Virus record (IMG/VR): IMGVR_UViG_3300037069_000769
Span: 38,322-102,321 of that record
Source: a virus
Direction: 5' to 3' (one strand)
Length of the DNA stretch: 64,000 nucleotides
Part shown: piece by piece, positions 432 through 63,913 of the stretch
Layout: each line of letters opens with the position of its first letter
Position numbering within the stretch: the stretch's first letter is position 1
Notes under the pieces: model-generated
Database searches by the model: none
Told to the model about the DNA's origin: nothing
The model's input: only the letters and a program-made list of their open reading frames with translations
Program-made: the position numbers and the translations under genes

Positions 432-458
432 ATTTGCAAACGTTTGCACGAGGATTTC

Positions 459-2309
459 ATGGCGAACGAGAATACTGATCCCATCGTTCTTGAGGAGGGG
501 CACCCTCTCTCTAAGGCAATTCAAGAGGCTGCTCTTGAGGTTGGGGAAACGGATGAGACCGTCATCGAGGAGATTTTTATCACTGATAACGGTGAGGGCG
601 GCGATAAGCTCATGTCTGAGCTGGAGATCATCAAGTCCGTGCTGGCTTCTAGCATGTCGGGATTTGATAGCACTAAGATTCACAGGGAGGTGAATAATGC
701 CGCCATGTTCGACATGACGAAGACGGCAGACGTGTCTAAGTCTATTGTTGACGGCTCAACTCAGAGCGATTCCGAACTAGGTTGGAATGACCTGTCCATG
801 TATCAGGTTGTTGAGCCTCCGTATCCGCCCCAGTTGATGTCAGCATTTTTGGAGGTGGATTCGACCCACTTCCGATGTGTTCGTACTAAGGTGACGGATG
901 CAGTCGGTAAGGAGTACATGATTGAGCCTGTAACCCTGCCTGACGGCACGCCCTATAAGCCGTTTGAGGGGGAGATTACTAAGCAAGTTGAAGCTGAGAT
1001 CACGGAAGTTAAAAACTTCATTGACGATTGCAATGAGATTATTGGCTTCGACGGTGTGCTCGAACGGGTGGGCATGGACTATGAGGCTATCGGTTGGGGA
1101 GCGATCGAAGTTATTCGTGGTCGGGATATGAAGGTTAAAAAACTTGCCCATCTTCCGGCATCTCGTATCCGAGTGTTGCGAGGGTGGGGAGGCTTCGTCG
1201 AATCTTTGGTAAATGGCAAGTTTATTTACTATCAGAACTTTGGGGACAAGGTTGTATCCACGACAGAAACTGATCCGTTTACTGATAGACCTGTAGCATA
1301 TGATCCTAAACGTGACGGCACCTTGAATGGTAGTAGTGCCAAGTGGAGTTTGATCGATAGGCATTCCGGAAAGCCTACTGCCGATTTCAGCAATTCGGCT
1401 AACGAGGTTATTTGGATTCCTCGACACCACTGCTCGACCATCTATTACGGGTTGACCGACGTGTTGCCGGCTCTCGGTGATCTGCTGGCGAATGTGCATA
1501 TCCGGGATTACTTGCTACAGTTCTTTGAGCATAACACGATTCCACGGTATGCAATCATCATCAAGGGAGCTAAGATTGCTGACGGGGTGAAGAAGGAGAT
1601 TCTCAAATTCTTCAGCGATCATATCAAAGGCAAGGCCCATAAGACTCTGATTATTCCCATCCCTGCGGTACGCGGTGAGGTGGAGATTAAGTTCGAGAAG
1701 CTTGCTGCGGATGTGACTGAGGGCTCGTTTCAAGATACCCGAAAGAACAACTCTCAGGGCATCCTTACTGCTCACGGTGTTAGTCCCGCTATTATCGGCA
1801 TTAACGATGCGGCAAGTCTTGGCTCAGGTAAGGGTATGTCCCAAGCCGAAATCTACAAGGATCGCATCGTAACGCCGTCTCAGCGGCGATTTGCTCGACC
1901 TCTGAACCGATTATTCCGGATTGGACTCGGAATCAAGATTGTAGCTCTGAAGTTTAGCCCTCTCGACATTCGAGATTTGGAAGCTGAGATGCAGATTTAC
2001 ACCGGTTATCTTGATAAAGGTTGCATGACTATCAATGGGGTTATTAAGAAAGTCGGCCTTGGTGATCCCATTGAGGGCGGTGATCGAGCCTTTATTGTGT
2101 TGCCGCACATTGGGATACAGTTTGTCGATGAGATGACTACTCAGGTGAGTCAGCAAATGCAAGACTTGCAGGATCAAGTAGACTCTGCAAAGCAGGAGCT
2201 TCAGAACCGGGCACTCCAACAGAAGGCTCAGCAGGCAGCACAGAATGGTCAAAAACCTCAGCAATCCGCCAAGTCTTCTAAGTCTGCCAACAGTGGAGCT
2301 GGAAAATAG
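459..2309 (+). CDS. portal protein
   Basis: About 617 aa after terminase; DYEAIGWGAIEVIR, FFEHNTIPRYAIIIKG, ILTAHGVSPAIIG typical of HK97/PBSX-type portals; ATG at 459 with GAGG RBS. Confidence 0.9.
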   Translation: MANENTDPIVLEEGHPLSKAIQEAALEVGETDETVIEEIFITDNGEGGDKLMSELEIIKSVLASSMSGFDSTKIHREVNNAAMFDMTKTADVSKSIVDGSTQSDSELGWNDLSMYQVVEPPYPPQLMSAFLEVDSTHFRCVRTKVTDAVGKEYMIEPVTLPDGTPYKPFEGEITKQVEAEITEVKNFIDDCNEIIGFDGVLERVGMDYEAIGWGAIEVIRGRDMKVKKLAHLPASRIRVLRGWGGFVESLVNGKFIYYQNFGDKVVSTTETDPFTDRPVAYDPKRDGTLNGSSAKWSLIDRHSGKPTADFSNSANEVIWIPRHHCSTIYYGLTDVLPALGDLLANVHIRDYLLQFFEHNTIPRYAIIIKGAKIADGVKKEILKFFSDHIKGKAHKTLIIPIPAVRGEVEIKFEKLAADVTEGSFQDTRKNNSQGILTAHGVSPAIIGINDAASLGSGKGMSQAEIYKDRIVTPSQRRFARPLNRLFRIGLGIKIVALKFSPLDIRDLEAEMQIYTGYLDKGCMTINGVIKKVGLGDPIEGGDRAFIVLPHIGIQFVDEMTTQVSQQMQDLQDQVDSAKQELQNRALQQKAQQAAQNGQKPQQSAKSSKSANSGAGK

Positions 2310-3387
2310 CCTTAGGCACGCTCAACGCAAGATCATCATCGTAAAGGCCGCTACTTCCGGTATGCGGTTAATGCTGGAAGATGCGTTTCAGGATCAGCTT
2401 CAGAGATTCATTCGGGCATGGCACGTTCGGCTTAGTCGTCACCTTGAAAGTGTTGAGTACTTCAAACGTGCTGTGACCGATGCTCGAATCCTTAAAGCTA
2501 AGAGTACCTCAATAAGCGATCTTAGGCGTAGAGTTAATACCTCGTTCGCCTCTGATCTTGATCCGCTGCTGGAAGAGTTTCGACGCATTATTGTTACTGC
2601 TCCTATTGAGAAGTACTATGTGCGATGGGCACCTCTGGTGTTTAGCTTAGGGGCTGTGACAACTCTGAACACGTTTGGAGTACATGCTCGAAGTCCCGCT
2701 CTTGAGACTTTTCTTAGGGTGGGTGTTGTCTCCAAGGCGTCGGGGGGCGAAGATTTTACGTTTGAGTTGAGTGATGCTGCGATTATCCATGCCTTAGAGA
2801 GTCGTGGTATTATCGTAGGTGCGGGCTTAACTCACGACATTATCGAGGATGCTCGAAGCTTAATCCGAGACAAGGTGTACTTGGGAGGCTCGGATGTTGC
2901 TGACATTGCTGAGGAGCTGGCTTCTGCCCACGCTATAGCTGACTGGCGTGCTTTGTCTATCGCTAGAACTGAGACGCAGGCCGCGTTCAACCTTGCATCG
3001 TATCGGATGTTTGAGCGGTCAGGCGTACAGAAACAGTTCTGGGTCACAGTTGGAGATAACCGGGTAAGACCTCAGCACGTAGCTAATGAGGAAGCCGGAG
3101 CAGTTCAGATAGGTGTACCTTTTCCTAGCGGTCAGCTTCATCCGGGAGACGGGCCACTATCTGTTAATTGTAGATGCAGCCTTCTCCCTGACTTGAGTGA
3201 TCCGTCGATCTTGTTGAACCCTTGGGATGGGAAGTCTGGACCGTTCTTATCTACGGATGCTGGAGCAACCTTGCCGGCTGTTCGACGATTTAGTAAGAGA
3301 TTGTCAATTCCGCATGGTATCGCTCCGGGAGTGTCAGACGCCCGAGTTGACTTGGCAGATGAAGAGTTACTCTTTCCTGAAGAGTGA
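2245..3387 (+). CDS. head morphogenesis protein (SPP1 gp7 / Mu gpF-like)
   Basis: IARTETQAAFN, WVTVGDNRVRPQH and NCRC motifs; follows portal; start uncertain. Confidence 0.88.
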   Translation: MVKNLSNPPSLLSLPTVELENSLRHAQRKIIIVKAATSGMRLMLEDAFQDQLQRFIRAWHVRLSRHLESVEYFKRAVTDARILKAKSTSISDLRRRVNTSFASDLDPLLEEFRRIIVTAPIEKYYVRWAPLVFSLGAVTTLNTFGVHARSPALETFLRVGVVSKASGGEDFTFELSDAAIIHALESRGIIVGAGLTHDIIEDARSLIRDKVYLGGSDVADIAEELASAHAIADWRALSIARTETQAAFNLASYRMFERSGVQKQFWVTVGDNRVRPQHVANEEAGAVQIGVPFPSGQLHPGDGPLSVNCRCSLLPDLSDPSILLNPWDGKSGPFLSTDAGATLPAVRRFSKRLSIPHGIAPGVSDARVDLADEELLFPEE

Positions 3388-3409
3388 TACCTGTTAATAA
3401 GATACGAAT

Positions 3410-3471
3410 TGTCAGCCCCCTTAAAGATTTTTTAGGCGGGGGTTGACAGTTCCTTTTTTACAGTGTAGACT
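3410..3471 (+). promoter_or_regulatory. hairpin overlapping a sigma70-like promoter
   Basis: TGTCAGCCCCC...GGGGGTTGACA stem; TTGACA(3443)-17 nt-TAGACT(3466). Confidence 0.55.
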
Positions 3472-3536
3472 GGGTGAATTGCGGCAGTGGTGGTTGGTAC
3501 TTAGTTTCACATTCCTTTTGCAAACGTTTGCAAACT

Positions 3537-5782: not shown

Positions 5783-6426
5783 GCCGTCGCAAAATTGTTG
5801 CGGGCACTGCCAGTAATCTTATACCTGTGTTCGTGAGGGATACTAGTAAGACTGACGGTTCTGGATTATCTGTAGCTTACAACGCCTCCGGCCTAACTGC
5901 TGAGTATCGTCGTAAGGGATCATCGTCTTGGACCTCAATCAGCGTTGTTACGAAAACCCTCGGAGTATTCACAAGTGGGGGTTGGTGTGCGGACGGCAGC
6001 TTAACCGGAGCCCATGAGTTTGCTCCCCCTGACGCTGCTTTTGCTGCTGGGGCAACTTCGGTAGCTCTCAGAGTGTACGGTGTAACTAATATGTTACCCG
6101 TGCTTCTTGAGTTTGAGTTGATGACTTTTAACGATCAGGCTGCTGGAGGTAAAGTACCTGTAGCGGCTAAGGGATTGGCGATAAGTAACTTCGGCTTCAT
6201 TATGCGAAGTTCAACGTCTAAGGCCCCGACTCCCGGTTTGACTGTGACGGCTCAGAGAAGTTTGGACGGTGCAGCGTTTGGGGCCTGTGATAACTCTCCC
6301 TCGGGTATCGGTAGCGGGGCATACAGTATCAATCTAAGCACCGCTGACACCAACGCTAACGTAGCGATGTATATGTTTACGGCTACTGGAGCTGATCCGA
6401 CCTTTGTTGAGATGCTTTTTCAATGA
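5779..6426 (+). CDS. hypothetical, probable structural beta-rich protein
   Basis: 215 aa, ATGA coupling with upstream gene, beta-strand-like composition. Confidence 0.6.
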   Translation: MSRRKIVAGTASNLIPVFVRDTSKTDGSGLSVAYNASGLTAEYRRKGSSSWTSISVVTKTLGVFTSGGWCADGSLTGAHEFAPPDAAFAAGATSVALRVYGVTNMLPVLLEFELMTFNDQAAGGKVPVAAKGLAISNFGFIMRSSTSKAPTPGLTVTAQRSLDGAAFGACDNSPSGIGSGAYSINLSTADTNANVAMYMFTATGADPTFVEMLFQ

Positions 6427-7175
6427 TGATCTTTTGCGGTAACGCGATTGTCGAGGAAAGGTACTTTGAAGGGGATTGGGGCACTGAACTGCGGGGTTTT
6501 TCAGACTCCTTAACTTTGCAAACGTTTGCAATTTTTTTGAGTTCTGTTACGCGGCAGGGTTTTGAAGCTATCAATTTACCGTCTGTCAGTAGTGCGTCAG
6601 GTTCAGTAGGGGTTGGGGTAGTTGGAAGTCTCAGTGCCTCAGCGACTGGCAACCTACAGAGTGGTGATGTGGTGGGAGTTGTAGCCGACCTTGAGTTAAG
6701 TGTCGCAAATTTGTATGCTACCTCAGGGGTTGTGAGTGCTGAGGTATCATTTGCTGCGAACTCGGTGTGCGAACTTCTTCTGACTGCGGTTAATCAACTT
6801 CACGAGGTTATTGAATCTGATGCCGTAGCTAGTGAGATAATGTCGGCTCAAAATGAGCTTGTGGGTAGTCTAACTGAGATCGTTCGGGCTGGCTTATTGG
6901 GGCAGTTGTCAAATTCAATCGCGGATCAGATGACCTTAGGGATTTCGGCCGAGATTGCGTTTTCTGCCGGCAAGCATTACATTGAGAGTTTTGCCCTAGC
7001 CGTGTTGTCCCAACTGGAGCTTGCTGGGGTCTCCGGACGAACGTTTAACGTATTGAGGGTGTTGGGCGAAGCTTTTAAGCAAGCTCTAATGTCCATCGAA
7101 TCTCTCACGCAAGGTGACATGATTGATGAGACGCTTCGAGATAGCGATCTAACTGACGAAACATTTCTTCCTTGA
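6423..7175 (+). CDS. hypothetical protein
   Basis: 250 aa, ATGA-coupled; contains palindrome copy 6517 (LQTFA). Confidence 0.6.
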   Translation: MMIFCGNAIVEERYFEGDWGTELRGFSDSLTLQTFAIFLSSVTRQGFEAINLPSVSSASGSVGVGVVGSLSASATGNLQSGDVVGVVADLELSVANLYATSGVVSAEVSFAANSVCELLLTAVNQLHEVIESDAVASEIMSAQNELVGSLTEIVRAGLLGQLSNSIADQMTLGISAEIAFSAGKHYIESFALAVLSQLELAGVSGRTFNVLRVLGEAFKQALMSIESLTQGDMIDETLRDSDLTDETFLP

Positions 7176-7186: not shown

Positions 7187-8044
7187 ATGAAGTGGCTGTT
7201 TCAACTGATCTCCGCTCTGTACCGTGCCTATACCCCCGGCAGCTTGTTCGGTCAGACTACCGTTTTGAACTTCAAGTCTGAGTGTAGAGATTCAGATGGG
7301 AAACTTCGCTGGACGGATGATGTAAACCTCCCAGTGGTGATTGCTGGCAATATCCTTCCGCTATTGGGGCTGTTTGTAGCGTTGTCGCTGCTAGTGCCAT
7401 ACGGCAGTTGGATCGCCTTGGGGTTAGTGACCACCGCGGGCCTCAATAAGTTGCTTGACGCAACCGTTAAGACTGGTTTGACTTCGCCCGCATGGTACGT
7501 TGGGCTTATTGGGGCTAAAGTTACTGACGGTGCGATGACGGCATCGTCGGCTACTTTGACTTCGGCAAGTAATCCGTTTGCATCCGGTGATGTTGGCTTG
7601 CATATCATTGTTCGTGGTGCGGGAGCGGCTGGAGCCGATCTTTACACTACGATCAGTGCTTATACTAATGCTGGCCAAGTTACTCTGGCGGCTACGGCTG
7701 GGACAACTGTAAGTGGGGCTGGGGTAGCCTTCGATCCCCGTCCTGCTGACACGATGGCCTCGCATTCGTTTGTAAGTGTTACTCCGTTCAGTAACTCTAC
7801 TCGACCTGCTTGGACTCCGGGCAGCATCTCTGCGGGGTCTGTGAGTAATTCGGGTTCTCCCGCAGTGTTCACCGTCAATGCTTCGTCATACGTGTTCGGG
7901 GCGTTTCTTGCTGACGATAGCGGTGTTAGCGGTACTACCGGAACTCTGTACGGAGGATCAATGTTTACTGGAGGTATCGCTCGGCAGGTGGCCAGTGGTG
8001 ATACTTTGACTGTAACTGGGACTCTTACAGTGACGGCAGCATGA
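7187..8044 (+). CDS. hypothetical virion protein
   Basis: T/S/G/A-rich; LVTTAGLNKLLD...WYVGLI...GDTLTVT resembles phage minor structural proteins; N-terminal hydrophobic stretch. Confidence 0.6.
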   Translation: MKWLFQLISALYRAYTPGSLFGQTTVLNFKSECRDSDGKLRWTDDVNLPVVIAGNILPLLGLFVALSLLVPYGSWIALGLVTTAGLNKLLDATVKTGLTSPAWYVGLIGAKVTDGAMTASSATLTSASNPFASGDVGLHIIVRGAGAAGADLYTTISAYTNAGQVTLAATAGTTVSGAGVAFDPRPADTMASHSFVSVTPFSNSTRPAWTPGSISAGSVSNSGSPAVFTVNASSYVFGAFLADDSGVSGTTGTLYGGSMFTGGIARQVASGDTLTVTGTLTVTAA

Positions 8045-8400: not shown

Positions 8401-8435
8401 TGCAAACGTTTGCAATTTCCTCACAGGTGTGTAGC

Positions 8436-9956: not shown

Positions 9957-10023
9957 GTTCCAATCTCAACTGCATTGTCGCTTTGCAAACGTTTGCAAGG
10001 GTCACTTTTTTCTGGGGTGTTGA

Positions 10024-14219: not shown

Positions 14220-14245
14220 TTTTGCAAACGTTTGCACGGTGATCT

Positions 14246-15121: not shown

Positions 15122-15568
15122 ATGCTGGACGCTTTGTACAATGCAATCATTCAAAAACTTCGAGGCGACGGGCAGCTTGTTAGCTTAACTGAGCATACTG
15201 TTTCCCCGCCTGACTTTCGGATAGGTAGAGGGCATCCCACTACGGTAGGCAAAAAGCCTTACCTTGCCGTAGATGCTATGGTCTCCACCCCATTGACTCC
15301 TGATGTATCGGCAGTTGAGAAAGCACGCATAGTTTTTACTGCGATCTCCTCTGATCCGGTAAAGTGCATGCAAATTGCTGGACGAGTAAAGGCTCTCCTG
15401 AGTAATCAAACGCCTCGTGACTATTGGAACTTCACAAACTCCAGTATTGTAAACAAAGGCACGACCTACAAGGGTTACGGTAAGATTCTTGAGTATGATG
15501 ACAACTTGAAATGTTACAGCACCGAAGTTCATGCGGATGCTGTTTGGTCAGACGGCCCCTGTAGTTGA
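15122..15568 (+). CDS. putative tail terminator
   Basis: 148 aa directly upstream of major tail protein. Confidence 0.6.
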   Translation: MLDALYNAIIQKLRGDGQLVSLTEHTVSPPDFRIGRGHPTTVGKKPYLAVDAMVSTPLTPDVSAVEKARIVFTAISSDPVKCMQIAGRVKALLSNQTPRDYWNFTNSSIVNKGTTYKGYGKILEYDDNLKCYSTEVHADAVWSDGPCS

Positions 15569-16309: not shown

Positions 16310-16358
16310 GAAGTGCAAACGTTTGCACTCCAGTTCTTGAGTTTGGGAGTTTCAAAGC

Positions 16359-16730: not shown

Positions 16731-16773
16731 CGCAAACTGAGTGGTTTGCAAACGTTTGCACTGGAGTAAGAGT

Positions 16774-21895: not shown

Positions 21896-21937
21896 ACTTG
21901 CAAACGTTTGCAAAACTTCAGTTAAGAGTGACGACAC

Positions 21938-22329: not shown

Positions 22330-24846
22330 ATGGGTTCCGAAGTAAGTCAATATCTGTACAGTTACGCCATCCAGCCTTCGAGAGATTGGAGGTACGACTA
22401 CGCACTTGATATTCCGTTGTTAATTGCTCCCCGCAATAATACGAATATGTGCGTAGAAAATATCGACTGGCTGCTTGACGGCACTCCGTTTGAGGAAGGT
22501 GGGAACAGCGGTATTGACTTGGTGTGGACTTCAGTAACGGGAGCGGAGTATTACATCCTTCAGTGGTGTAACAACTCTAGCTTCCGTGGGCCTACGTTAC
22601 GAGCCCTGCAAGTTGCTGACTCCGGCAACCTGTACACAACCTACACGCTGAAGTATATCACCGATGTATGGTACGGTGAGACCATCTATTGGCGGGTGAT
22701 TGCGTATAACACTCACGGTGGAGTTGGAGCTAAGTCGGATACTTGGCAGGCCACTTACGACTGTCCCGGAGGTAACAAGTCTAAGCAGCCTCAAAAGCCG
22801 AGCAACAACGACAGTCAAATCTGTGACAAGTTCGGAGTTCGGATTACTCTGGACGGTCCTGAGCATATGATGTGCTGCGATAAGCAGATGTACACACTGA
22901 ATGCTCAGTACTCGTGCACCGCTGATGATGGGGCACCGATCACAATTTATGCTGTGAACTATGCGATCGCTCAGGGATCGGTAGGCGGCGTATCAATCAT
23001 TCAGCAGAATGACAAGTTAGTAGTCGTCGAGATTGCGGCCACAGCTACTAACAGCTTTACCCTGACTGCCTCTATTACGTTCCAAGTCACTACTGACGAA
23101 GGGACTAAGTTTTTTACGTGCACCGGGCACAAGAAGATTTACACAGACTGTCTGACAGGTAAGGCCAGTGAAAAACCTTGGCTGAAGCTTGCGTATTACC
23201 CTTTGCCCGGCGTGGTGTTCTACACCGATCCATTCTACTCGGGAGATATGGTAGGCACGGACGACACGATGGACCCCGGTCTAGCAGTTCCGGGTATTCT
23301 TGGTCAGGCTCCTTACTGCGTTTCAAATATCCATGACGGGCTTCTTGCCAGTCTTGGGCAGAATGGGGCATACTCTGTTGACCTGATTGCCGTCGGTCCA
23401 GTAATTGAGATCAATCGAACCTACAATTACTTCTATTACGATAATGGAGGGTGCTCCAGCGGCATCCCTATCGGAGAACTCACGTATCAGATCAATGAGG
23501 CCCGCGTTCATATTCCGGTAGGATGTGGTCTGTGGTACGATGCTGAGTACGGGCTCCGTGCTGACAAACGTATGGCCGGTCGAGGATTGGGTTGGGGCTC
23601 AGACGCTTGGGGAGCTAGTACGGATCATCGGAGAGACTGTCAGTTAGGCATTCACACTTGTGGAGGATTTTTCGGGTTTAATACCTACCTAGGTGGTCCC
23701 GATGGAGCTTGCGATGGGTGTCCTCCGGGAACCTCTCCCCAAGATTTCGGTATCGGCGAAGCATTGTTTCCGATTGCAAGCGAGTTGATCGATAACGTAT
23801 TTCTGGGTAACACTCCCGCACTTCCCAACACTGATCCCGTATCTGCTAGCGGCGGTCCTATTGTCATGGGATGGACTGCGGCCTCAATGGGCTCGCTGGA
23901 TAGTACTTGGTGTGGGTCCGGATACGTTCTTGCCCTCAATTACGACTGCTCTTTGAAGGTTACTGCTGGTGCGGGTTGGGCAAATCAAACCGCTCTTGGA
24001 GTAGATACCGACCATCTTGCGGGCAGAGGTCTTCTCACTCAGATAGACGAGCTTTGTGATAAACTGCAAGTTGACTTAGGTTGCGGTTTGGCCCTTGATG
24101 GTAATCAGATTGTCATAAACGGCTCAGACCTTGGAGGTGCGGGCATCGCAGCGGGAAGTGGGTGCTCGTTAAGTGTTATCACCGGATGTGGTACTTACAT
24201 CGATCCAGATACGCACGCTGTCACGTTTAATGGCTCTGACGTAGCTGGAAACGGTCTGGTTGTTGGGGGAACGGGGTGCTCTCTTGATGTGAATCCCGGT
24301 TGCGGTATCTACATTTCAGCCGATCAAGTTACCGTCAAACGTGATGACCTTATTGGGAATGGGTTGAAAGCTGGATACGGTACGTGTTCGATTGACATTA
24401 ACTACGGTTGTGGTCTCACCTTGTCCTATGGTGCTCTGATCGTCAATAAGTCAACTTTGGCAGGCAAGGGGCTGCAAGCTGCGGGCTTATCTTCGTCCTG
24501 TGCTCTTGACGTGTTTGTGGGATGCCACCTCACTATTGAGACCGATAACAGTATTGGGGTAAGTACTGACGACGGCTTGTGTGGTGACGGTCTTACAAAT
24601 GGAACTAGCGGTTCCTGTGAGAACATTAATATCAATCCCGGATGTGGTTTGAAGATCAGTGGAGGCACGGGAACGGGCGGAGCTGTAATGGTAGATAACT
24701 CTGCTCTTGCCGGTGCCCACCTTGTAACCTCAGGAACTTGTGCTCTTGCTGTGAATGTTACTTCCCAAACTGTAGTTACGGGAGTAACCTGTAATGGTGA
24801 TGGGACGATTACAGTAACTACCGCAACGGTAAATGTCGTGGTGTGA
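22330..24846 (+). CDS. Cys-rich tail fibre/spike with FN3-like N-terminus and GCG repeats
   Basis: WTSVTGAEYYILQ...YWRVIAYN (FN3-like); about 36-aa repeats with GCG and AG.GL in C-terminal third. Confidence 0.65.
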   Translation: MGSEVSQYLYSYAIQPSRDWRYDYALDIPLLIAPRNNTNMCVENIDWLLDGTPFEEGGNSGIDLVWTSVTGAEYYILQWCNNSSFRGPTLRALQVADSGNLYTTYTLKYITDVWYGETIYWRVIAYNTHGGVGAKSDTWQATYDCPGGNKSKQPQKPSNNDSQICDKFGVRITLDGPEHMMCCDKQMYTLNAQYSCTADDGAPITIYAVNYAIAQGSVGGVSIIQQNDKLVVVEIAATATNSFTLTASITFQVTTDEGTKFFTCTGHKKIYTDCLTGKASEKPWLKLAYYPLPGVVFYTDPFYSGDMVGTDDTMDPGLAVPGILGQAPYCVSNIHDGLLASLGQNGAYSVDLIAVGPVIEINRTYNYFYYDNGGCSSGIPIGELTYQINEARVHIPVGCGLWYDAEYGLRADKRMAGRGLGWGSDAWGASTDHRRDCQLGIHTCGGFFGFNTYLGGPDGACDGCPPGTSPQDFGIGEALFPIASELIDNVFLGNTPALPNTDPVSASGGPIVMGWTAASMGSLDSTWCGSGYVLALNYDCSLKVTAGAGWANQTALGVDTDHLAGRGLLTQIDELCDKLQVDLGCGLALDGNQIVINGSDLGGAGIAAGSGCSLSVITGCGTYIDPDTHAVTFNGSDVAGNGLVVGGTGCSLDVNPGCGIYISADQVTVKRDDLIGNGLKAGYGTCSIDINYGCGLTLSYGALIVNKSTLAGKGLQAAGLSSSCALDVFVGCHLTIETDNSIGVSTDDGLCGDGLTNGTSGSCENININPGCGLKISGGTGTGGAVMVDNSALAGAHLVTSGTCALAVNVTSQTVVTGVTCNGDGTITVTTATVNVVV

Positions 24847-24939
24847 CCTAGCGGGATCACCTCAAATGTGCTACAATACCCTGAGTCTCATTTGAGGCTT
24901 GGGGTTTTTCTTTTGCAAACGTTTGCACGGAGTTTAGGT

Positions 24940-25362
24940 ATGCCATCAACAACTTTTGCTTGTGCTTGTTGCGGCGGGGGCGGCGGGGGATGTTCCGCAT
25001 GTACCGGAGTCGGGTCTACCTTAACGGTAACTATCAGCAATGCCCCAAACCTAGTTTGCGGCACGTGTAGTGTTATTACGACACCTCGTACTGTGACTAA
25101 GATTGCAGACTGCGAGTGGGAGTCATCTACGTTTAATACTTGCAGTAGGACTTGGAAGCTGGGGGTGATTGTCTTTACCTCTGCGGGAGTACGCCACGTC
25201 CGAGTATCTCTTACTTGCGTATCAGCGGGATGTTCTGATCTGATCTCGTGGACAACTCCGGCTCCTAATGCGTGTCCTCCTCAATCCGGCATTCCGGTAG
25301 ATGGTGGCGGTGGGGGCTCGGCCGCTTGCGACTTCAGTGCTAGCACGGCAGCCGTTGCTTAA
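24940..25362 (+). CDS. Cys/Gly-rich hypothetical protein
   Basis: ATG after palindrome 24914; CACCGGGGGGC and many Cys. Confidence 0.6.
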   Translation: MPSTTFACACCGGGGGGCSACTGVGSTLTVTISNAPNLVCGTCSVITTPRTVTKIADCEWESSTFNTCSRTWKLGVIVFTSAGVRHVRVSLTCVSAGCSDLISWTTPAPNACPPQSGIPVDGGGGGSAACDFSASTAAVA

Positions 25363-25380
25363 ACTTTCTCATATTTACTA

Positions 25381-25409
25381 TTGACACCATGTCAATATAT
25401 CGTTATAAT
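25381..25409 (+). promoter_or_regulatory. consensus sigma70 promoter with inverted repeat over -35
   Basis: TTGACA-17 nt-TATAAT; TATTGACA-CCA-TGTCAATA palindrome. Confidence 0.8.
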
Positions 25410-39054: not shown

Positions 39055-39948
39055 ATGGATAGCAAATTCATTCACCTTATCGAGAACCTAAGTAAGCAGT
39101 CGGTATCGAATGATGCTGTTGTCGCTTATATGGTTATGCGATGCGAGGTGACTGCTGGGAATACGTCAACCTCGAAAGCATGGAAAGTTCGAGGTGGGCT
39201 GGTATCCGGGCTCGATTTGCAAACGCTTGCAAATCGGACTCGGGTAAATCTTCTGACGGCCCAGCGGCTTGTGGATGAGTTAGTACGAGCTGAGTGGATA
39301 CGACCGAAGCGTGACTCTGGCGACTTGGTGTATCAGTTAGGTGAGATCAAGGATTTCACTGCTGAGTGGTTCGCTGATAGTACTGCTGAGATAGTTGTGG
39401 TGGAGAAGGTTGAAAAACCTTCAGATAGAATCCGAGCAATGCTTGCTGAAAAGCGTGCACGGGATTCTGCACGGCATGAGCCTGTGAGATTGTCAACTGA
39501 TGCAAAACGCAAGATGCTTGCCGATGCGGGCATAGTTGAGACTACTAAGAACTCAAGTACGTTGTTCGTGGAAATCTATAACAAGAAATTCCGCGAAGTG
39601 TTCCATGCTGAACCGAAGGGTGTCAAGGGCGATGTAGAATCTCGACCCTCTCCGCAGACCTACGTGTATGTGGGACGGATGTTGAAGATTCACAACCGAA
39701 AGCTTGAAATCGCGGTTGAGTTCATGGACTGGGTATTCTCCAATTGGGAGAAGTTAGCGACTGCTGCTAAGGTGTCGGGAAACCCGACCCTGAACATTCT
39801 GTGCACTAAGTCATTTATCGACACTTTCAGAGGTTGGCGAATCTCTGGAATCCCCGAACGTAGGGTGCCGGTGAGTGATAAAGATGGAATTGGAAAGAGA
39901 GCAGACTCCGCAGCAATTGAAGAAGCCGCCGATCTCGGCTGGTCGTAA
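39055..39948 (+). CDS. putative replication initiator
   Basis: N-terminal winged-helix-like segment; precedes DnaC-like and DnaB genes. Confidence 0.5.
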   Translation: MDSKFIHLIENLSKQSVSNDAVVAYMVMRCEVTAGNTSTSKAWKVRGGLVSGLDLQTLANRTRVNLLTAQRLVDELVRAEWIRPKRDSGDLVYQLGEIKDFTAEWFADSTAEIVVVEKVEKPSDRIRAMLAEKRARDSARHEPVRLSTDAKRKMLADAGIVETTKNSSTLFVEIYNKKFREVFHAEPKGVKGDVESRPSPQTYVYVGRMLKIHNRKLEIAVEFMDWVFSNWEKLATAAKVSGNPTLNILCTKSFIDTFRGWRISGIPERRVPVSDKDGIGKRADSAAIEEAADLGWS

Positions 39949-40531
39949 AATCCCTTTGACGCCTGACGTGTTAGAGAGGTTACAGATTCCCCGTGTTCAC
40001 TGGAACACGAAGGCGAGTCTTATTCCTGACTCCTGTAAGCACAAGAAGCTTATAGTTGAGTATGTTGAGAATATCTCTGCAAACGTTTGCAAACCGCGAG
40101 GCTTGCTTCTGTTTGGGACGTATTCTGCTGGAAAATCCGGATGTGCGGCAATCTGTTTGAAGGCTGCCGCTTTCCGAGGGTGTATCGGTTTGTGGTTGGT
40201 CGCCAACAGCGTGCCGACTGTTCAGATCGAGAAGACGCCTTTCGACGAAGAAGTTACTTTGTACGAGAGGGCATGTTCCGTACCACTGTTAGTTCTTGAC
40301 GAGTTGCAGATTCGCAGCGAAGTTAAGGGCATCGAGCAGTACGTAGAGCGACTGATTAGGTTGAGAGTGGATGCTAAGCTGGCAACCATCATCACCACTA
40401 ATCACACCCCTGCTGAGGTTTCTGCGAAGTTTCCCGCATTAGCTGCGGCCCTATTGGAGGCCGTAGTGCCTATGAAGGTCGATGGGCACGACTTTCGCAA
40501 AGAAATCTCTAACGGACTCTTGAAGGGCTAA
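39875..40531 (+). CDS. DnaC/IstB-like helicase loader ATPase
   Basis: GLLLFGTYSAGKS, LLVLDEL, TIITTN, GHDFR. Confidence 0.85.
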   Translation: MIKMELEREQTPQQLKKPPISAGRKIPLTPDVLERLQIPRVHWNTKASLIPDSCKHKKLIVEYVENISANVCKPRGLLLFGTYSAGKSGCAAICLKAAAFRGCIGLWLVANSVPTVQIEKTPFDEEVTLYERACSVPLLVLDELQIRSEVKGIEQYVERLIRLRVDAKLATIITTNHTPAEVSAKFPALAAALLEAVVPMKVDGHDFRKEISNGLLKG

Positions 40532-41831: not shown

Positions 41832-42037
41832 TCGACCTTTTCGGGATTTGGATTTGCAAACGTTTGCAATTGAAGAGAAAGAGTACTTAGTAATTAAGTA
41901 CCCTGTCTCAATGCCGTACCATAGTAGGCATCAGTTAGCCCTAATGATTCATAGGTTGATGCCGATAGACGCAGATACCCAGTTGGGCAGAGTTCTCTTA
42001 GTTCCGCAAGATTTCGACTTTACGAAGTGTCGCATAG

Positions 42038-43728: not shown

Positions 43729-43764
43729 GGGTGGGTTTGCAAACGTTTGCAAACCCATCCTTTT
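43729..43764 (+). terminator. hairpin built around a palindrome copy (26-bp perfect palindrome)
   Basis: TGGGTTTGCAAACGTTTGCAAACCCA at 43732-43757 followed by TCCTTTT. Confidence 0.55.
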
Positions 43765-45769: not shown

Positions 45770-45794
45770 GTTTCCTTGTGCAAACGTTTGCAAA

Positions 45795-48637: not shown

Positions 48638-48663
48638 TTTGCAAACGTTTGCAAAGGTGAGCG

Positions 48664-48909
48664 ATGGGCCGTCAGACTGCTGAGATAGCCACCCGACATA
48701 GGTTGATGGTGAAGTTGGCCATCAAGGCCCTCTGGCGGTTGAATGCTCCGTTAACGTCTCGGCAAATTGCCACTCACACCGGCTTGACAATCTGGTGTGT
48801 GAACCAGATACTGCGTCGGAATCTGGACATATTCAGGCGGGTCGATGTGCCCACTAAGGGCGGTCGAATCCATAGTAGGGGTGTTCAGGTGTATTGGGAG
48901 CTGTACTGA
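48664..48909 (+). CDS. small winged-HTH protein
   Basis: PLTSRQIATHTGL...VNQIL. Confidence 0.5.
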   Translation: MGRQTAEIATRHRLMVKLAIKALWRLNAPLTSRQIATHTGLTIWCVNQILRRNLDIFRRVDVPTKGGRIHSRGVQVYWELY

Positions 48910-49361
48910 TGTCTCTTGATCGTGCGGGACGAAAGCAGCCGGGAGCCCCAAAGTTGGGGTCAAAGAAGTCTGGAAAGGCTGCTGTAAACGAGCATGAGTA
49001 TGAGTTAGCTGAGAAACTGGGAGGTCGGCGACAGCCTGCCTCGGGAGCCTTAGCTGCTCATAAGGGAGACATTAAGACCCGAGATTTCCTGTTTGATTCG
49101 AAGGAGACGGAAGCAACTGCAATCAGTGTGTTCGGCACTGATCTTACGAAGATTACTCGTGAGGCTCGGGGTGAGGGTAAACATCCGGGCCTTGTTTTGA
49201 CTATTCGAGGGGTGCCGTCAACCACTGACAGTGAGTGGGCGTGCATCCCCTTGGATGTATTTGCAAGTATTCTTGCAGAATTGGAGAATCAACGTGAAGC
49301 CCTCAGAAAAAATCCGTCAGATGGTACAGCAGGCTCGGGACTCGGGGGAAGTAGTTCCTGA
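48909..49361 (+). CDS. PD-(D/E)xK nuclease, resolvase-like
   Basis: E..LA...GG...PASGA...KGDI...FDSK. Confidence 0.7.
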   Translation: MSLDRAGRKQPGAPKLGSKKSGKAAVNEHEYELAEKLGGRRQPASGALAAHKGDIKTRDFLFDSKETEATAISVFGTDLTKITREARGEGKHPGLVLTIRGVPSTTDSEWACIPLDVFASILAELENQREALRKNPSDGTAGSGLGGSSS

Positions 49362-49938
49362 CGATCACCCTAGCAAGCATCCTCTTACTGCGAAGGTGTA
49401 TGAGTATATTTGTAATGGGCATTTGCCTGCTACGAATGCTCCAAGACTTCGCGGAGCAACTGATGAGGAGATTGCTGCTGCTTTTCCGGACGTGGCCCAT
49501 AATAATGTGCGATGGGCTCGTTGGAGTATGACCAAGAACGGATACATCCTTGATTCGGGAATCCGTAGGGCCAAGTTGAAGAATCGCGGGCAGGCAAAAG
49601 TTTGGGTAAAGGCTGATGTGCCTGAGAAGAAGCGAGGCCGAGGTGTAATCAAGCCTCAGTCGATCTTCAATGAGATGTTGGGCATCATCCTGATGTATCC
49701 GCAAAGTGAGTGGCCTCTTCTGCTGGAGCAGTTAGCCTCTGACTTCAAATTGAACTTTGATATGGATGATTTCAGGAAGAGGCTACAAAGTGTTGGAGGC
49801 ATTCAAACTAGCGGAGACTTTGAAGTCCGCTCCGTCAGTTCCGGAGGCGGAGGTGAGATCATCCTCATCGACCCCCGTAACTCTGAAGGATCGCGAAGCT
49901 CCCAAGATGCTGGAGATCAAGAACCCAGCTCTGCTTAA
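49294..49938 (+). CDS. hypothetical protein
   Basis: GGAG RBS before GTG; HTH-like GATDEEIA...RW. Confidence 0.5.
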   Translation: MKPSEKIRQMVQQARDSGEVVPDDHPSKHPLTAKVYEYICNGHLPATNAPRLRGATDEEIAAAFPDVAHNNVRWARWSMTKNGYILDSGIRRAKLKNRGQAKVWVKADVPEKKRGRGVIKPQSIFNEMLGIILMYPQSEWPLLLEQLASDFKLNFDMDDFRKRLQSVGGIQTSGDFEVRSVSSGGGGEIILIDPRNSEGSRSSQDAGDQEPSSA

Positions 49939-50890
49939 CGTTACGAAAGCAGTTAATGCTTGGGTTGATTCGTGGCCCAACCAGAACTCCTACACAGATT
50001 TCCTTCGAGCATCATCTCTGCATGGGGTGTGTCCGAGGGAGTTTGTGTTTAATTATTGGCAACCGAAGGCTAATCGCAGTTTCGACGCTAAGTCCCGTGT
50101 TCTCATGTCTATCGGGACTCATTTGCACTCATTGAAGCAGAACCAGGTTCTTGGACCCTTGGGCATTCTATGGGGCACTTGGAAGTACGTGGGCAGCTCT
50201 GAGGCTTTGAAGACCCACGAAGGGTTCCATCCTGACCCTGATGAAGCTGTATGGGCGATGGTACATGAGAAGGAGCAGAAGTGGGAGTATGTTGAGCCCG
50301 AGGTGTGGGATGAGAAGTATAGAATCAAAGGGCACATTGACGGGTTGATTGATGTTGGTAGGTTAGAGTGGTTGAATTCCAATCTGCCTCTGCTGAAGAA
50401 AGACCCGATTTCAACTTGCAAACGTTTGCACGCGATGGCTCCTACACAGCGAATGCTGTTTGAATTGAAGACAACTGGTAGTTTTGTCTTTGACAAGTTG
50501 GTAGCACCCAAAGACATTGCTGACTACTACCAGATGCAGGCGTGTATCTACCAGAGATTGATGGGCGTGTCTCATACTCTGTTCTGGTATGTGAATCGAG
50601 ATACTGCGGCGTCCAAGTTGTTGTTGTACGCTTACGATGCTGGCTGGTGGCGGGATGCTACAAGAAAGGCTAGGATCATTTGGGAGAGTATTAGAGATGA
50701 AGTCCTGCCGGAGGCATTGATGCCCTGTCACTCTCCAACTGATAAGCGTGCTAAGGAATGTGTGCACTGTCCAGTGTGCTTCGGGAAGTTGGACTTTAAG
50801 AAGTACGTTGAGTCGGGTAAGGAGAGAGCTGCTAAGGAAGGTCGAAAGTTGCTCGATTTGCGAGGGATTAGTTTTGAAACGCCTGCGTGA
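49757..50890 (+). CDS. Cas4-like PD-(D/E)xK exonuclease
   Basis: CPR, GTHLH, GHIDG, ELKT, QACIY, C-terminal C...CVHC; start uncertain. Confidence 0.8.
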   Translation: MIWMISGRGYKVLEAFKLAETLKSAPSVPEAEVRSSSSTPVTLKDREAPKMLEIKNPALLNVTKAVNAWVDSWPNQNSYTDFLRASSLHGVCPREFVFNYWQPKANRSFDAKSRVLMSIGTHLHSLKQNQVLGPLGILWGTWKYVGSSEALKTHEGFHPDPDEAVWAMVHEKEQKWEYVEPEVWDEKYRIKGHIDGLIDVGRLEWLNSNLPLLKKDPISTCKRLHAMAPTQRMLFELKTTGSFVFDKLVAPKDIADYYQMQACIYQRLMGVSHTLFWYVNRDTAASKLLLYAYDAGWWRDATRKARIIWESIRDEVLPEALMPCHSPTDKRAKECVHCPVCFGKLDFKKYVESGKERAAKEGRKLLDLRGISFETPA

Positions 50891-51341
50891 TATAATCGAT
50901 CAGATAGAAGACACCGTTAAGGTGTTGCGGTCGTTTTATCTCTACGCCAGCATTAAACCTCAAGCTAAGCAGTCAGTGGCGTTTGGGAAAGGGCATGGGT
51001 TTACTCCACCCAAAAAGCGGGCCTACTTGAAGAATTTGGGTAAGAAGTTGGCAGAAAGTTACCCCACTCAAATGAAGGTATGTGGGCTCGTTCGTCTGAC
51101 TGTCCTGCTTTCGTTTCCTTGGCGAGAGACCGATTGTAAGAGTTTGCTGTGGGCGTTAATGGAAGAATCGCCTGATGTTGATAATCTCTACAAGCCTGTT
51201 GCTGATAGCTTGCAGGAGATATGCTTGAAGAATGACTCTCAAGTAGTGTCAATTCGGGTGCAGAAGATTAGGTCCGAGGATGTCGGAATTCTAGTCAAAG
51301 TCGAGGAAGTTATGGCAAATAGAGCAATTCAGCTAGGTTAG
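50748..51341 (+). CDS. RusA-like Holliday junction resolvase
   Basis: PDVDNLYKPVADSL...NDSQVV; true start probably near 50874. Confidence 0.8.
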   Translation: MLRNVCTVQCASGSWTLRSTLSRVRRELLRKVESCSICEGLVLKRLRDIIDQIEDTVKVLRSFYLYASIKPQAKQSVAFGKGHGFTPPKKRAYLKNLGKKLAESYPTQMKVCGLVRLTVLLSFPWRETDCKSLLWALMEESPDVDNLYKPVADSLQEICLKNDSQVVSIRVQKIRSEDVGILVKVEEVMANRAIQLG

Positions 51342-51929: not shown

Positions 51930-51991
51930 GGGATTTGCAAACGTTTGCAAGTCGTACTTTCAACCAACTGTAGCTGTTAGGAGAGTGTGTC

Positions 51992-53026
51992 ATGGCCAAG
52001 AAAACGAAAAGTTCGTCCGGCGTGGTGCCGGCTGACAAGACCCTGCCCGCAACGGGCGAAACGAAGGAAGCGAGTACGAAGATGAGTGACGAAGTGACCA
52101 CTACCCCTGCTCCCGAAGTGGCCGGCGAGGCCGAAGTGCTGACTCCGGAAGCTGAAACGAAGATCATCACGACCGGCAAGGCGACCGATCTGCTCGCCGA
52201 AGGTGGTGGGGTGTTTCTCCCGTCGGCCCTGAAGGGCGTGACCGATTTGGCCCAGCGTCAGGAGATGACCCGCCAGTACATCAAGCAGGCGGCTCAGGTC
52301 AGCGATCGGCTGAACCTCGTGGCCGGCGAGCTGCTGTTCGAGTGTGCCAAGAACGCCTACTGGAAGGAGTGGGAGTTCACCGACGAGAAGGGCGAGACCC
52401 GCAAGTACGCCAAGTTCGAGGAGTACTGCGATCACGAGTTCTCGCTCGGCTACCGGAAGGCCATGTACCTGATCTCGATGTACGAGAAGTTCATCGTCGA
52501 GCTGGACCTGCCCATCGACGTGCTCGGAGGTCTCGACTGGTCGAAGGCCAAGGAACTGGTGCCGGTCATCACGAAGGAGAATGCGGCAGACCTGCTCGAC
52601 AAGGCCAGCCACATGACCTTCAAGCAGGTGCAGGAACTGGCGAAGTCGATGAAGGCCGCGGCGAAGACCGGCACTGCCGGTGCTGCGACCGGAGCGTCCG
52701 AGCCCGCCGAGGTGAAGGAGAAGATCGCTTTCACGGTCCCGAAGGAGAAGGCCGAGACGATCCGTGCGGCACTCGCTCTGGCCGAAAGCCTGTCCGGGTC
52801 CGCTGATCCGGGAAGTCAGCTCGATTTCATCTGCTCCGACTTTACGGCCTCTTCCAGCGGCATGGGCACCGATGGTGCTCTCTCCAAGCTCGATGTCATC
52901 ATCAAGAACATCGAGCGGACGTTCCACGTCAAGCTGGAGATCACCAGTGTCGATGCCGATCACTACAAGACGGCTGCGGCTCCCGAAGTCCCCGCCGAGG
53001 GCGAAGTGCTCACTCCCGGTGCGTAG
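51992..53026 (+). CDS. putative DNA-binding protein (DUF3102-like core), strong codon bias
   Basis: GELLFECAK..YW...FEEYCDHEFSLGYRKAMYLI...LDWSKAKEL; mostly G/C-ending codons; long antisense shadow ORF. Confidence 0.6.
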   Translation: MAKKTKSSSGVVPADKTLPATGETKEASTKMSDEVTTTPAPEVAGEAEVLTPEAETKIITTGKATDLLAEGGGVFLPSALKGVTDLAQRQEMTRQYIKQAAQVSDRLNLVAGELLFECAKNAYWKEWEFTDEKGETRKYAKFEEYCDHEFSLGYRKAMYLISMYEKFIVELDLPIDVLGGLDWSKAKELVPVITKENAADLLDKASHMTFKQVQELAKSMKAAAKTGTAGAATGASEPAEVKEKIAFTVPKEKAETIRAALALAESLSGSADPGSQLDFICSDFTASSSGMGTDGALSKLDVIIKNIERTFHVKLEITSVDADHYKTAAAPEVPAEGEVLTPGA

Positions 53027-53114: not shown

Positions 53115-53144
53115 TGCAAACGTTTGCAAATTTGGAGAAATCTA

Positions 53145-55239: not shown

Positions 55240-55368
55240 TCGGCTACGTTTGCAAACGTTTGCAAATGTTCGTGATCGCATATCTGATTGGAATGATTGT
55301 GCTTGCAGGATTGTGGGCAGTTCTTGGAGTGCGGATCAGAAAACTCTAAAAAACGCTCGCAACTTCTA

Positions 55369-59382: not shown

Positions 59383-59420
59383 TACTGCCGAATAACCCTA
59401 ACTTGCAAACGTTTGCAATT

Positions 59421-62478: not shown

Positions 62479-62521
62479 GAAAGCAATTTGCAAACGTTTG
62501 CAAAAATCGGGCAAATTTCTC

Positions 62522-62851: not shown

Positions 62852-63307
62852 GTGATGACTGATATAAAGTATGCTGAGAAATTTGAGACTCCTGAAGATT
62901 GTCAGGTGATTGCTGTCGTCGGGCCAACTGGGAGACTCTGCGGAAGTGTTGCCCCTGACTATCACGAGAGAGCAAACTTTGGAGCAGATTGTAGGTATCT
63001 GTATCTGACCTTTGAAGACCTAAATCTGCTCAAATCGTGGTGGGAGAGTGCTTGGGGTAAGAAGCTTCGGGAGACTAGCCCTCTCGATGATCCAGACAAA
63101 ATCTGGGCAGCTTTAAGACTCTGGGACGAGGGGACTGAGTGTCTTGTTGAGGGGCATGCTGATAGTCTCGGGTACGATTATTCAGACATGGGCATATATG
63201 AGTTGTCTAAGACCCTCCTTGATCTGGCGGAGTCTGAAGAGGATTTTCCTGATAAGAGTGATCTTTGTGACTACCTTCGGCATGTGATCTCCAGAATCCC
63301 TCACTGA
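62852..63307 (+). CDS. hypothetical protein
   Basis: 151 aa acidic ORF. Confidence 0.55.
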   Translation: MMTDIKYAEKFETPEDCQVIAVVGPTGRLCGSVAPDYHERANFGADCRYLYLTFEDLNLLKSWWESAWGKKLRETSPLDDPDKIWAALRLWDEGTECLVEGHADSLGYDYSDMGIYELSKTLLDLAESEEDFPDKSDLCDYLRHVISRIPH

Positions 63308-63360
63308 CAGGTCACCCTCCTTTTGAGGACCCTCCTTTAGAAGACCCTCCGTAGGAATGT

Positions 63361-63600
63361 GTGATGAGTACTCCGTATAAACCTCAGAAGTACGACCTTG
63401 CCGGATTTGATCTGGTAGGGTACAGACAGCCTGATGGCTCGATTCGGCTGGGCTCCAAGGTGATCGTCTCTGAGTTTCCACCCGAGGTTGAGCTGATCGG
63501 AGTTGTGTACACTCTGGAGGAGATTGTGGTGAACGACAAGGATGGTACGTTGTCTGAAGACCATCCGGGCAAGCATTTGATGTGGGGCATTTACGTTTAG
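63361..63600 (+). CDS. hypothetical protein
   Basis: 79 aa ORF. Confidence 0.55.
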   Translation: MMSTPYKPQKYDLAGFDLVGYRQPDGSIRLGSKVIVSEFPPEVELIGVVYTLEEIVVNDKDGTLSEDHPGKHLMWGIYV

Positions 63601-63663
63601 CTGTGTGATCTCCAAGTATGTAGCTGGAGAGATTGATCGCAACCCCCCAGAGAGGGGTATGAG

Positions 63664-63897
63664 ATGTCTGAGCCTGTTCAAGGTCCGACTGTGTACGAAG
63701 CCGCGATGACCAGAATTCGTCGGATTGATGCTAACATTGCGGAGCTTCAGAACGAGCGTGCTCTGTGTAAGCGTCGGGCTGATAGGTATATGAATAGCCC
63801 GATGCTTGAAGCTGAGCGTATTGCTACTGAGGCTGAGAAGTTTCTACCGCCCTTGCCCGATGACTTCACGATGCTCGGGGCCAACCCCGACGAGTGA
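63664..63897 (+). CDS. hypothetical protein
   Basis: GAGG RBS; palindrome 2 nt after stop. Confidence 0.55.
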   Translation: MSEPVQGPTVYEAAMTRIRRIDANIAELQNERALCKRRADRYMNSPMLEAERIATEAEKFLPPLPDDFTMLGANPDE

Positions 63898-63913
63898 TCT
63901 GCAAACGTTTGCA

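Follow-up and report, generated by a model that had tools for sequence, protein, structure and literature searches.

The question that this locus raises is why one short palindrome, TGCAAACGTTTGCA, recurs at one gene junction after another in a phage genome, and what would read it there. The DNA considered here (the window, that is, the whole stretch of 64,000 nucleotides that was analysed) comprises bases 38322-102321 of a single linear IMG/VR virus contig of 102,321 bp, which comes from an uncultured, siphovirus-like phage, is about 80% complete according to CheckV, has a G+C content of 50% and carries almost all of its genes on the plus strand. An initial annotation of the window had picked out the palindrome, and its existence is borne out: there are 27 exact copies of the 14-mer and 4 copies with one mismatch, and none with exactly two mismatches, as compared with the 0.19 copies at up to two mismatches that one would expect from shuffled sequence. 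Over the whole contig (G000 in what follows; G001-G015 and L012-L014 denote the other viral contigs with which it was compared), we find 44 exact copies, 9 with one mismatch and none with two, which makes 53 in total, at a mean spacing of 1.9 kb. Our answer, which we hold with a probability of roughly one half, is that the palindrome forms an array of double-stranded DNA binding sites, or operators, for a dimeric, sequence-specific protein; the binder and the effect of its binding are what we infer from the evidence given below.

A first line of evidence is symmetry. When the 44 exact copies are tabulated by position, the flanks prove to be conserved only at two bases on each side, and symmetrically so (T,T and A/C,A), from which it follows that the unit is a palindrome of 16-18 bp, (t)TGCAAACGTTTGCA(a), whose 18-mer form is TTTGCAAACGTTTGCAAA. 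In G000, the site is a perfect, AT-rich palindrome over 14-18 bp, and the 39 single-mismatch variants pooled from five phages are mirror-symmetric, with 6 changes compatible with G·U pairing versus 8 among their mirror images. A search of the literature for the exact 14-mer returned an unrelated primer only. Seen as RNA, the palindrome had been drawn in the initial annotation as the hairpin UGCAA-ACGU-UUGCA, and it does fold in this way, but its stability is marginal: folding yields -3.6 to -7 kcal/mol, the stem has 5-8 bp and the hairpin accounts for about 50% of the ensemble. An RNase III processing site, for its part, requires about two turns of double-stranded RNA. An explanation at the level of RNA would have such a hairpin bound by an RNA-binding protein or a nuclease, with a role in cistron-boundary processing, end stabilisation, tRNA maturation or translation tuning. 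We consider this unlikely, albeit with several observations in its favour that are taken up below; already at this point, the weakness of the hairpin, the mirror symmetry of the variants and the lack of any G·U-type tolerance speak against it, as does the central tetranucleotide, which is self-complementary in most lineages (ACGT, TCGA, GTAC), something that a loop does not need.

The second line of evidence concerns where the copies lie. Non-coding DNA makes up 15.2% of the genome, yet it holds 36 of the 53 copies (binomial P = 8e-18), in agreement with the association with gene junctions that had been noticed at the outset. One reason for this is that an invariant word of 14-16 bp fits coding sequence poorly. 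Of the G000 gaps that are at least 14 nt long, 36 out of 79 are occupied. The other 17 copies are intragenic or at the edge of an open reading frame (ORF) by the gene calls used, a few of them being artefacts of these calls; six copies in the window lie within ORFs (6517, 26064, 33925, 36019, 39218 and 50417), and intragenic copies account for 9/20 in G002 and 12/25 in G003. The copy at 45779 was counted as intergenic, the automatic gene call there starting too early. The copies in the window are the following, given without strand:

435-448, exact copy; junction of a terminase-large-like ORF and the portal gene, 3 nt past the stop at 431 and 10 nt before the portal ATG at 459; G010 has its own palindrome there too
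3519-3532, exact copy; 131 nt past the stop at 3387 and 4 nt before the ATG at 3537; sigma70-like promoter from about 3443
6517-6530, exact copy; within the called ORF 6423-7175, 90 nt beyond the upstream stop; T-run after the copy
8401-8414, exact copy; 0 nt past the stop at 8400 and 21 nt before the ATG at 8436 (protease/scaffold-like gene)
9984-9997, exact copy; scaffold/major capsid junction, 27 nt past the stop at 9956 and 26 nt before the capsid ATG at 10024; own variant in G009
14223-14236, exact copy; 3 nt past the stop at 14219 and 9 nt before the ATG at 14246; a G009 variant precedes the orthologous downstream gene
16314-16327, exact copy; 4 nt past the stop at 16309; of all junctions, the one best conserved between lineages
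16747-16760, exact copy; junction, 16 nt past the stop at 16730 and 13 nt before the start at 16774
21899-21912, exact copy; behind the tape measure gene, 3 nt past the stop at 21895 and 25 nt before the ATG at 21938
24914-24927, exact copy; preceded by a terminator-like stem (24878-24905) and its T-run
25458-25471, one-mismatch copy TGCAAACGTTTTCA; intergenic, about 42 nt beyond the approximate point where transcription would start from a perfect TTGACA-17-TATAAT promoter (25381-25409)
26064-26077, one-mismatch copy TGCAAGCGTTTGCA; within an ORF
27371-27384, exact copy; junction, 11 nt past the stop at 27359 and 22 nt before the start at 27407
28701-28714, exact copy; behind a T-arm-like hairpin (upstream tRNA not called), 12 nt before the ATG at 28727
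30719-30732, exact copy; 2 nt past the tRNA gene 30645-30716 and 16 nt before the ATG at 30749
32984-32997, exact copy; closes an ORF-less stretch of about 390 nt with a promoter at 32594-32622, 32 nt before the ATG at 33030
33925-33938, one-mismatch copy TGCAAACGCTTGCA; within the ORF 33369-34820
36019-36032, exact copy; deep within the glycosyltransferase ORF 35394-37160
39218-39231, one-mismatch copy; within the ORF 39055-39948
40078-40091, exact copy; 129 nt past the stop at 39948
41855-41868, exact copy; behind the DnaB-like helicase gene, 23 nt past the stop at 41831
43738-43751, exact copy; ahead of the DNA polymerase gene, 24 nt past the stop at 43713 and 29 nt before the ATG at 43781
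45779-45792, exact copy; DNA polymerase/helicase junction, 9 nt past the stop at 45769 and 2 nt before the ATG at 45795
48640-48653, exact copy; behind the RecA-like gene, 2 nt past the stop at 48637 and 10 nt before the ATG at 48664
50417-50430, exact copy; within the Cas4-like exonuclease ORF
51936-51949, exact copy; junction, 6 nt past the stop at 51929 and 42 nt before the ATG at 51992
53115-53128, exact copy; 88 nt past the stop at 53026 and 16 nt before the start at 53145
55251-55264, exact copy; behind the AAA/CobS-like gene, 11 nt past the stop at 55239 and 175 nt before the ATG at 55440
59404-59417, exact copy; 21 nt past the stop at 59382 and 3 nt before the ATG at 59421
62489-62502, exact copy; junction, 10 nt past the stop at 62478; TTGACT hexamer about 19 nt downstream
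63900-63913, exact copy; at a junction close to where the contig ends, 2 nt past the stop at 63897

All 12 of the stop-and-motif pairs listed in the initial annotation, from 431/435 through 63897/63900, agree with the ends of ORFs, and the copies that it saw directly ahead of the ATGs at 3537, 45795 and 59421 are present. That said, what the copies do is touch gene boundaries, without a specific preference for stops. Namely, 13 copies lie within 12 nt past a stop, while uniform placement of each copy in its own gap would give 10.6 (P = 0.15), and the placement just after stop codons that had been claimed, together with the distance-to-stop comparison suggested for checking it, comes down to copies no closer to stops than the short gaps themselves give, an outcome that the annotation itself had named as counting against its claim. 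The RNA genes said to end at the motif fare unevenly as well. The tRNA placed at 30715/30719 is real (30645-30716, Infernal 50 bits, with an anticodon that ARAGORN could not assign, tRNA-???), and the motif starts at 30719. The tRNA-like gene said to end at 28696, in turn, is not recognised as a tRNA by ARAGORN or, at E<=1, by Rfam/Infernal, has a fold z-score of -0.13 and amounts to a T-arm-like hairpin, and the structured RNA said to end at about 32980 matches no Rfam family.

It is instructive to look at the 20 long gaps (at least 60 free positions). Here, 8 copies lie within 16 nt ahead of the next start as compared with 1.7 expected (P < 5e-5), several of them coming after an RNA gene or an RNA candidate, and 3 lie within 13 nt past a stop as compared with 1.4 expected. 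In G002, the bias is the opposite one: 6/11 intergenic copies are at most 7 nt away from a stop (P = 0.001). An RNA element would accommodate both patterns, the former copies standing just ahead of the Shine-Dalgarno sequence and the latter directly behind stops, and the copy 2 nt past a real tRNA would also be in its place. What such an element does not account for is the exact copies deep in ORFs, or the spacing. In particular, the coefficient of variation of the spacing is 0.54 in G000 (P < 2e-4), 0.63 in G002 (P = 0.02) and 0.40 in G003 (P < 2e-4), as opposed to about 0.96 expected if copies were placed by random choice among the available gaps and positions. Such regular, genome-wide spacing is not something that per-cistron RNA processing predicts.

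The relation of the copies to transcription signals points the same way. The order of motif and intrinsic terminator varies: in G002, several copies follow the sequence stop-motif-terminator, while at 24878-24927 of the window the terminator comes first and the motif second, which speaks against an RNA element. One could also suppose that the palindrome serves a phage-specific transcription factor as its promoter, or else that it acts as a weak intrinsic terminator, given that many copies lie 9-30 nt upstream of gene starts and that a few are followed by T-runs, but we regard this as highly improbable. An intrinsic terminator was rejected, as there is no stable GC-rich stem (the energies being those given above) and a T-rich tail follows just 5/53 copies against a background of 6%; what is more, the G002 copies stand between the stop codon and a canonical terminator. 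As for promoters, no promoter hexamers or -35/-10 context occur at a fixed distance from the 44 exact copies in the position table. There are about 16 strong sigma70 promoters in the intergenic DNA of the contig, including perfect or near-perfect TTGACA-17-TATAAT promoters at 25381-25409, 30151-30179 and 32594-32622 of the window, which suggests that the phage relies heavily on the host sigma70 RNA polymerase; only 3-4 of them lie within 80 nt of a copy, and the site is consequently no promoter element. A promoter-operator as a general rule was likewise rejected, for lack of hexamers at a fixed distance and of any fixed relation to sigma70 promoters. A perfect palindrome is also an odd promoter in a genome transcribed in one direction, a phage sigma factor or RNA polymerase was not seen in a search that was not exhaustive, and the sigma factor of the G013 type is absent from G000.

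A third line of evidence comes from other phages. The same 14-mer is present in multiple copies in many other viral contigs that are distantly related or unrelated to G000 (G001/G005/G013, G002, G003, G012, G014 and G015). At up to one mismatch, there are 21 copies in the 46 kb of G001, 20 in the 98 kb of G002, 25 in the 85 kb of G003 and 24 in the 66 kb of G005, and G012 to G015 have 4 to 9 exact copies per contig. These sharers of the word have capsid identities of 24-60% and polymerase identities of 21-33% to G000, and those of the G001/G005/G013 type are transcribed in both directions. As a separate observation, this bidirectional type has copies clustered in a non-coding contig end, some of them 54-58 bp apart (G005 59952-65006; G013 25410-27113), in what looks like an origin or control region, and it also encodes an ECF-like sigma factor, whose candidacy as the reader was dropped on account of its absence from G000.

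The closer relatives of G000 (capsid identity 65-77%, polymerase identity about 50%), on the other hand, lack its word, and have other dyads of 14-16 bp instead:

TGCACACGTTTGCA, lineage dyad of G009
TCCAATCGATTGGA, lineage dyad of L012-L014
TGCAAGTACTTGCA, lineage dyad of G010
TGCAGATGTCTGCA, lineage dyad of G006 and G007
GTGTCCCCGGGGACAC, lineage dyad of G008

At the junction 16309/16359 of the window, all five lineages have their own version 4-9 nt past the stop (5-9 nt in G006, G007, G008 and G009), and lineage-specific palindromes are likewise found at the orthologous place in the terminase/portal and scaffold/capsid junctions. In other words, the position is kept while the sequence turns over, which is the pattern expected of a site and a reader protein that co-evolve.

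Both the sharing of the word and its place between genes could alternatively mean that the palindromes are recombination joints, the short shared word serving as microhomology or as a recombinase site when co-infecting phages swap gene cassettes, as proposed for the T4-type PeSL motifs. Copies do sit at gene boundaries even in long gaps, the accessory region at 24.9-33 kb of the window, where small ORFs lie together with a tRNA and candidate non-coding RNAs, is divided into units by seven of them, the identical word is found in unrelated phages, and the proteins of the phage include a RecA-like one, a Cas4-like nuclease and two resolvases of the RusA type. Nevertheless, 14 bases are very short for homologous exchange, it is left unexplained why copies occur in conserved genes and are evenly spaced across the conserved structural and replication modules, and selection for evolvability is weak when compared with that for a direct function. 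We therefore see little chance that this is the explanation.

The RNA element, too, has something to draw from the relatives. Namely, the asymmetric variants are co-oriented with transcription (11/11 in G009, 5 against 1 in G008), and the phage group encodes CsrA-like RNA-binding proteins. However, the G008 variant TGCACCCGGGGACA disrupts the stem, and the loop is without the GGA that CsrA would bind. With regard to these proteins themselves, the genes lie at contig 25236-25496 in G000, outside the window, and at 15241-15441 in G009; the form is canonical in G009 (66 aa) and G008, there is an insertion of about 30 aa in G000, G006 and G007, and in G009 the palindrome of that lineage stands 14 nt ahead of the csrA start. 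Several of these results point to a symmetric site in double-stranded DNA and away from a signal in RNA. The endoribonuclease or RNA-binding site that was to cut transcripts into units is unsupported (weak hairpin, no G·U preference, exact copies in ORFs, variable order with respect to terminators, regular spacing), and the alternative offered alongside it, a DNA roadblock placed so as to spare coding sequence, is the better fit to the data as far as a protein-binding site in DNA goes, its roadblock effect being putative.

A clue to the kind of protein that would bind comes from bacteria. The 12-bp core, GCAAACGTTTGC, is identical to footprinted or ChIP-mapped operators of Escherichia coli PurR and Streptococcus pneumoniae MalR (PMC3159470, PMC4451989), which belong to the LacI family. 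Bacterial genomes from many phyla contain the 18-mer singly, more than 120 of them as compared with about 9 expected, and a gene with a LacI-type helix-turn-helix (HTH) lies within 2.5 kb of it at 13/80 bacterial loci and at 0/80 control loci. As unrelated phages share the word, a host repressor of the LacI type is a serious candidate for the reader. One could go a step further and propose that unrelated phages have converged on evenly spaced arrays of perfect host LacI-family (PurR-like) operators as decoys that titrate a metabolite-sensing repressor, a proposal to which we accord only slim odds. If it were true, replication would create thousands of high-affinity sites and de-repress, for example, nucleotide synthesis; alternatively, the expression of the phage would be coupled to the metabolic state of the host, and relatives living on other hosts would have re-tuned their junction sites to other factors.

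It should be noted that several observations weigh against an operator array. To begin with, placement in long gaps is not neutral: 11/20 copies abut a gene boundary where one would expect about 3, a pattern that a pure costs-nothing model of placement fails to predict. Furthermore, the co-orientation of the asymmetric variants in the relatives, in G009 above all, is not required by a simple homodimer site. A reader was not identified among the phage proteins searched. In the phage, there is no LacI-type HTH (PF00356) above the cut-off. There are two XRE HTH genes (contig 7258-7509 and 23760-24029), which have no counterpart in G002, G003 and G005, where HTH_3 proteins were not found. Immediately ahead of the genes for the small (HTH_23) and large terminase, beyond the limits of the window, contig 34586-35341 encodes a 251-aa orphan protein of the ParB/KorB/Noc fold. 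Pfam recognises ParB_N in it (E = 2.7e-8), its sequence profile matches ParB, Spo0J, Noc and KorB structures (1e-15 to 5e-5), and its AlphaFold model (predicted local distance difference test above 80 for residues 10-150) pairs with KorB, ParB and Noc structures at a probability of 1.0, with 8qa9 and 7ol9 among the matches. Homologues are kept in most relatives (G002 and G006-G009, and weakly G003 and G014). Yet among 8 homologues from 5 motif classes plus one of unassigned class, a small sample, no residues track the motif class, the helix equivalent to the HTH is acidic (TDDREFEKS), and no homologue was found in the incomplete contigs G001/G005/G013, G012 and G015.

A special case of the operator array would have this very protein load at the palindromes as a cytidine triphosphate (CTP)-dependent clamp of the ParB/KorB/Noc type and slide from there, with silencing, DNA organisation or packaging as the outcome. 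In addition to the domain and structure matches and the homologues just mentioned, parS, the Noc-binding site (NBS) and the KorB operator (OB) are likewise palindromes of 13-16 bp, of which the latter two are dispersed, and in G002 and G009 a copy stands directly behind the stop of the parB-like gene. We nonetheless regard this as quite unlikely: no alignment column separates the motif classes, the helix at the recognition position is acidic, the homologue was not found in several incomplete contigs with the word, and ParB_N genes beside terminase genes are common in phages. Two further candidates gave no better result. The 344-aa ORF at 51992-53026 of the window was rejected as the binder, as it lacks a Pfam domain and does have homologues in phages with other motifs, and when all proteins were clustered against one another, none turned out to be confined to the genomes with the motif. 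Note also that Pfam scans of about 50 phage proteins yielded few domains, that no RAYT transposase (PF01797) was found in the phage, and that no tyrosine integrase was found in the approximately 80% complete contig. Separately, the variant TGAAAACGTTTGCA occurs just twice, both times outside the window: at contig 7235-7248, ahead of the XRE gene 7258-7509, and at 7412-7425, inside that gene. This pair may reflect autoregulation. The candidate readers are, in sum, a host repressor of the LacI/PurR type, the phage ParB/KorB-fold protein and the XRE protein of contig 7258-7509.

Returning to the operator array, one can picture its working as follows. A DNA-binding protein with two-fold symmetry would occupy the sites, evenly spaced over the whole phage genome, and where copies abut the ribosome-binding site of the following gene or the stop of the gene before, the bound protein would act on the passing RNA polymerase or on the expression of neighbouring genes. 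Any mechanism has to reckon with a word that is a LacI-family operator, with the same word in unrelated lineages, with other words at the same junctions in close relatives, and with regular spacing. The question this poses is whether the phage recruits a regulator of its host or carries a global DNA-binding protein that has gone unrecognised. It has a bearing beyond this contig, as genome-wide arrays of one invariant palindrome recur in large phages and their function has been proven only for stoperators.

With respect to the phage itself, the genes identified include those for the portal, a protease/scaffold, an HK97-type capsid, the tape measure protein and a family-A DNA polymerase, as well as a DnaB-like helicase, a primase, a RecA-like protein and CobS/CobT-like proteins. 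The isolate phage collection yielded no close relatives, the major capsid identity being at best about 28%; metagenomic relatives of G000, by comparison, number more than 100, partly from Tara Oceans, and those of its capsid protein more than 120. RusA-like Holliday-junction resolvases are encoded at 48909-49361 and 50874-51341 of the window, on either side of the Cas4-like exonuclease at 49790-50890, with the RecA-like gene adjoining. At contig 30672-34589 and window 35394-37160 there is a cluster that may be a sugar-modification pathway directed at DNA or at the host surface; it comprises several glycosyltransferases together with a DegT/DnrJ-type aminotransferase and a radical SAM enzyme.

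How does this array compare with known systems? LacI-family operators share with it the identical 12-bp core, the central CpG, the AA..TT pattern (AANCGNTT core) and the palindrome of 14-16 bp. Unlike the 53 sites of a phage without a LacI-type protein, however, they lie on host chromosomes, where each promoter has one or two of them, and the junction palindromes of the relatives (TGCAGATGTCTGCA, TGCAAGTACTTGCA) misfit the LacI pattern. The ParB-family sites, namely KorB OB on RK2 and Noc NBS on the Bacillus subtilis chromosome, are perfect palindromes of 13-16 bp that are dispersed, also within genes, and are read by a dimeric, CTP-dependent clamp. The short, dispersed, perfect palindromes and an encoded ParB-fold protein are found in G000 too; the difference is that this protein is untied to the motif class and that a ParA or KorA partner was not seen in the phage. 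Repetitive extragenic palindromic (REP) elements are GC-rich, imperfect palindromes of 20-40 nt with a GTAG-type head and a Y1 (RAYT) transposase. A REP element with RAYT was rejected here, the site being an AT-rich, perfect palindrome of 14-18 bp and PF01797 giving no match. Possible resemblances to sigma54 promoters and to IHF, CRP/FNR, LexA and SlmA/MatP sites were considered as well, the spacing of the sigma54 elements differing by one base.

Phages themselves provide three further cases. The stoperators of Cluster A mycobacteriophages and of Streptomyces phage R4 share with the present array a single short site that recurs dozens of times in the small gaps between genes, and a site sequence that differs between related phages while the system is retained; they act on the elongating RNA polymerase (PMC9283540, PMC6550527, PMC10276819). 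They differ in being asymmetric, strictly oriented 13-mers read by a monomeric immunity repressor of temperate phages, whereas the G000 site is a perfect palindrome and neither a cognate repressor nor an integrase was found in its approximately 80% complete contig, which does hold the two XRE HTH genes. By analogy, the position at gene boundaries would be functionally comparable to that of stoperators, or of KorB operators and Noc sites. Phage T1 and Citrobacter phage Stevie, lytic siphoviruses, have a 22-bp, mainly intergenic repeat in 16-20 copies, whose role is not established and which, in contrast to the palindrome, is asymmetric and oriented with transcription (PMC4319613). Finally, Cluster O mycobacteriophages have a 17-bp dyad, TGTTCGG-N3-CCGAACA, with function and binder not established, which is an invariant inverted repeat with more than 30 copies throughout a siphovirus genome and no clear orientation, about 40% of the copies being intergenic, about 30% near ORF ends and about 30% within ORFs (PMC4351075). 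It differs in its 7-3-7 layout as opposed to a continuous 14-mer, in its sequence and in its actinobacterial host, and neither a link to host operators nor sharing between unrelated phages is reported for it (PMC4351075). G000 has the same combination of tens of invariant, unoriented copies spread genome-wide, both between and within ORFs, and, on this comparison, the Cluster O dyad repeat is the closest described counterpart of the array.

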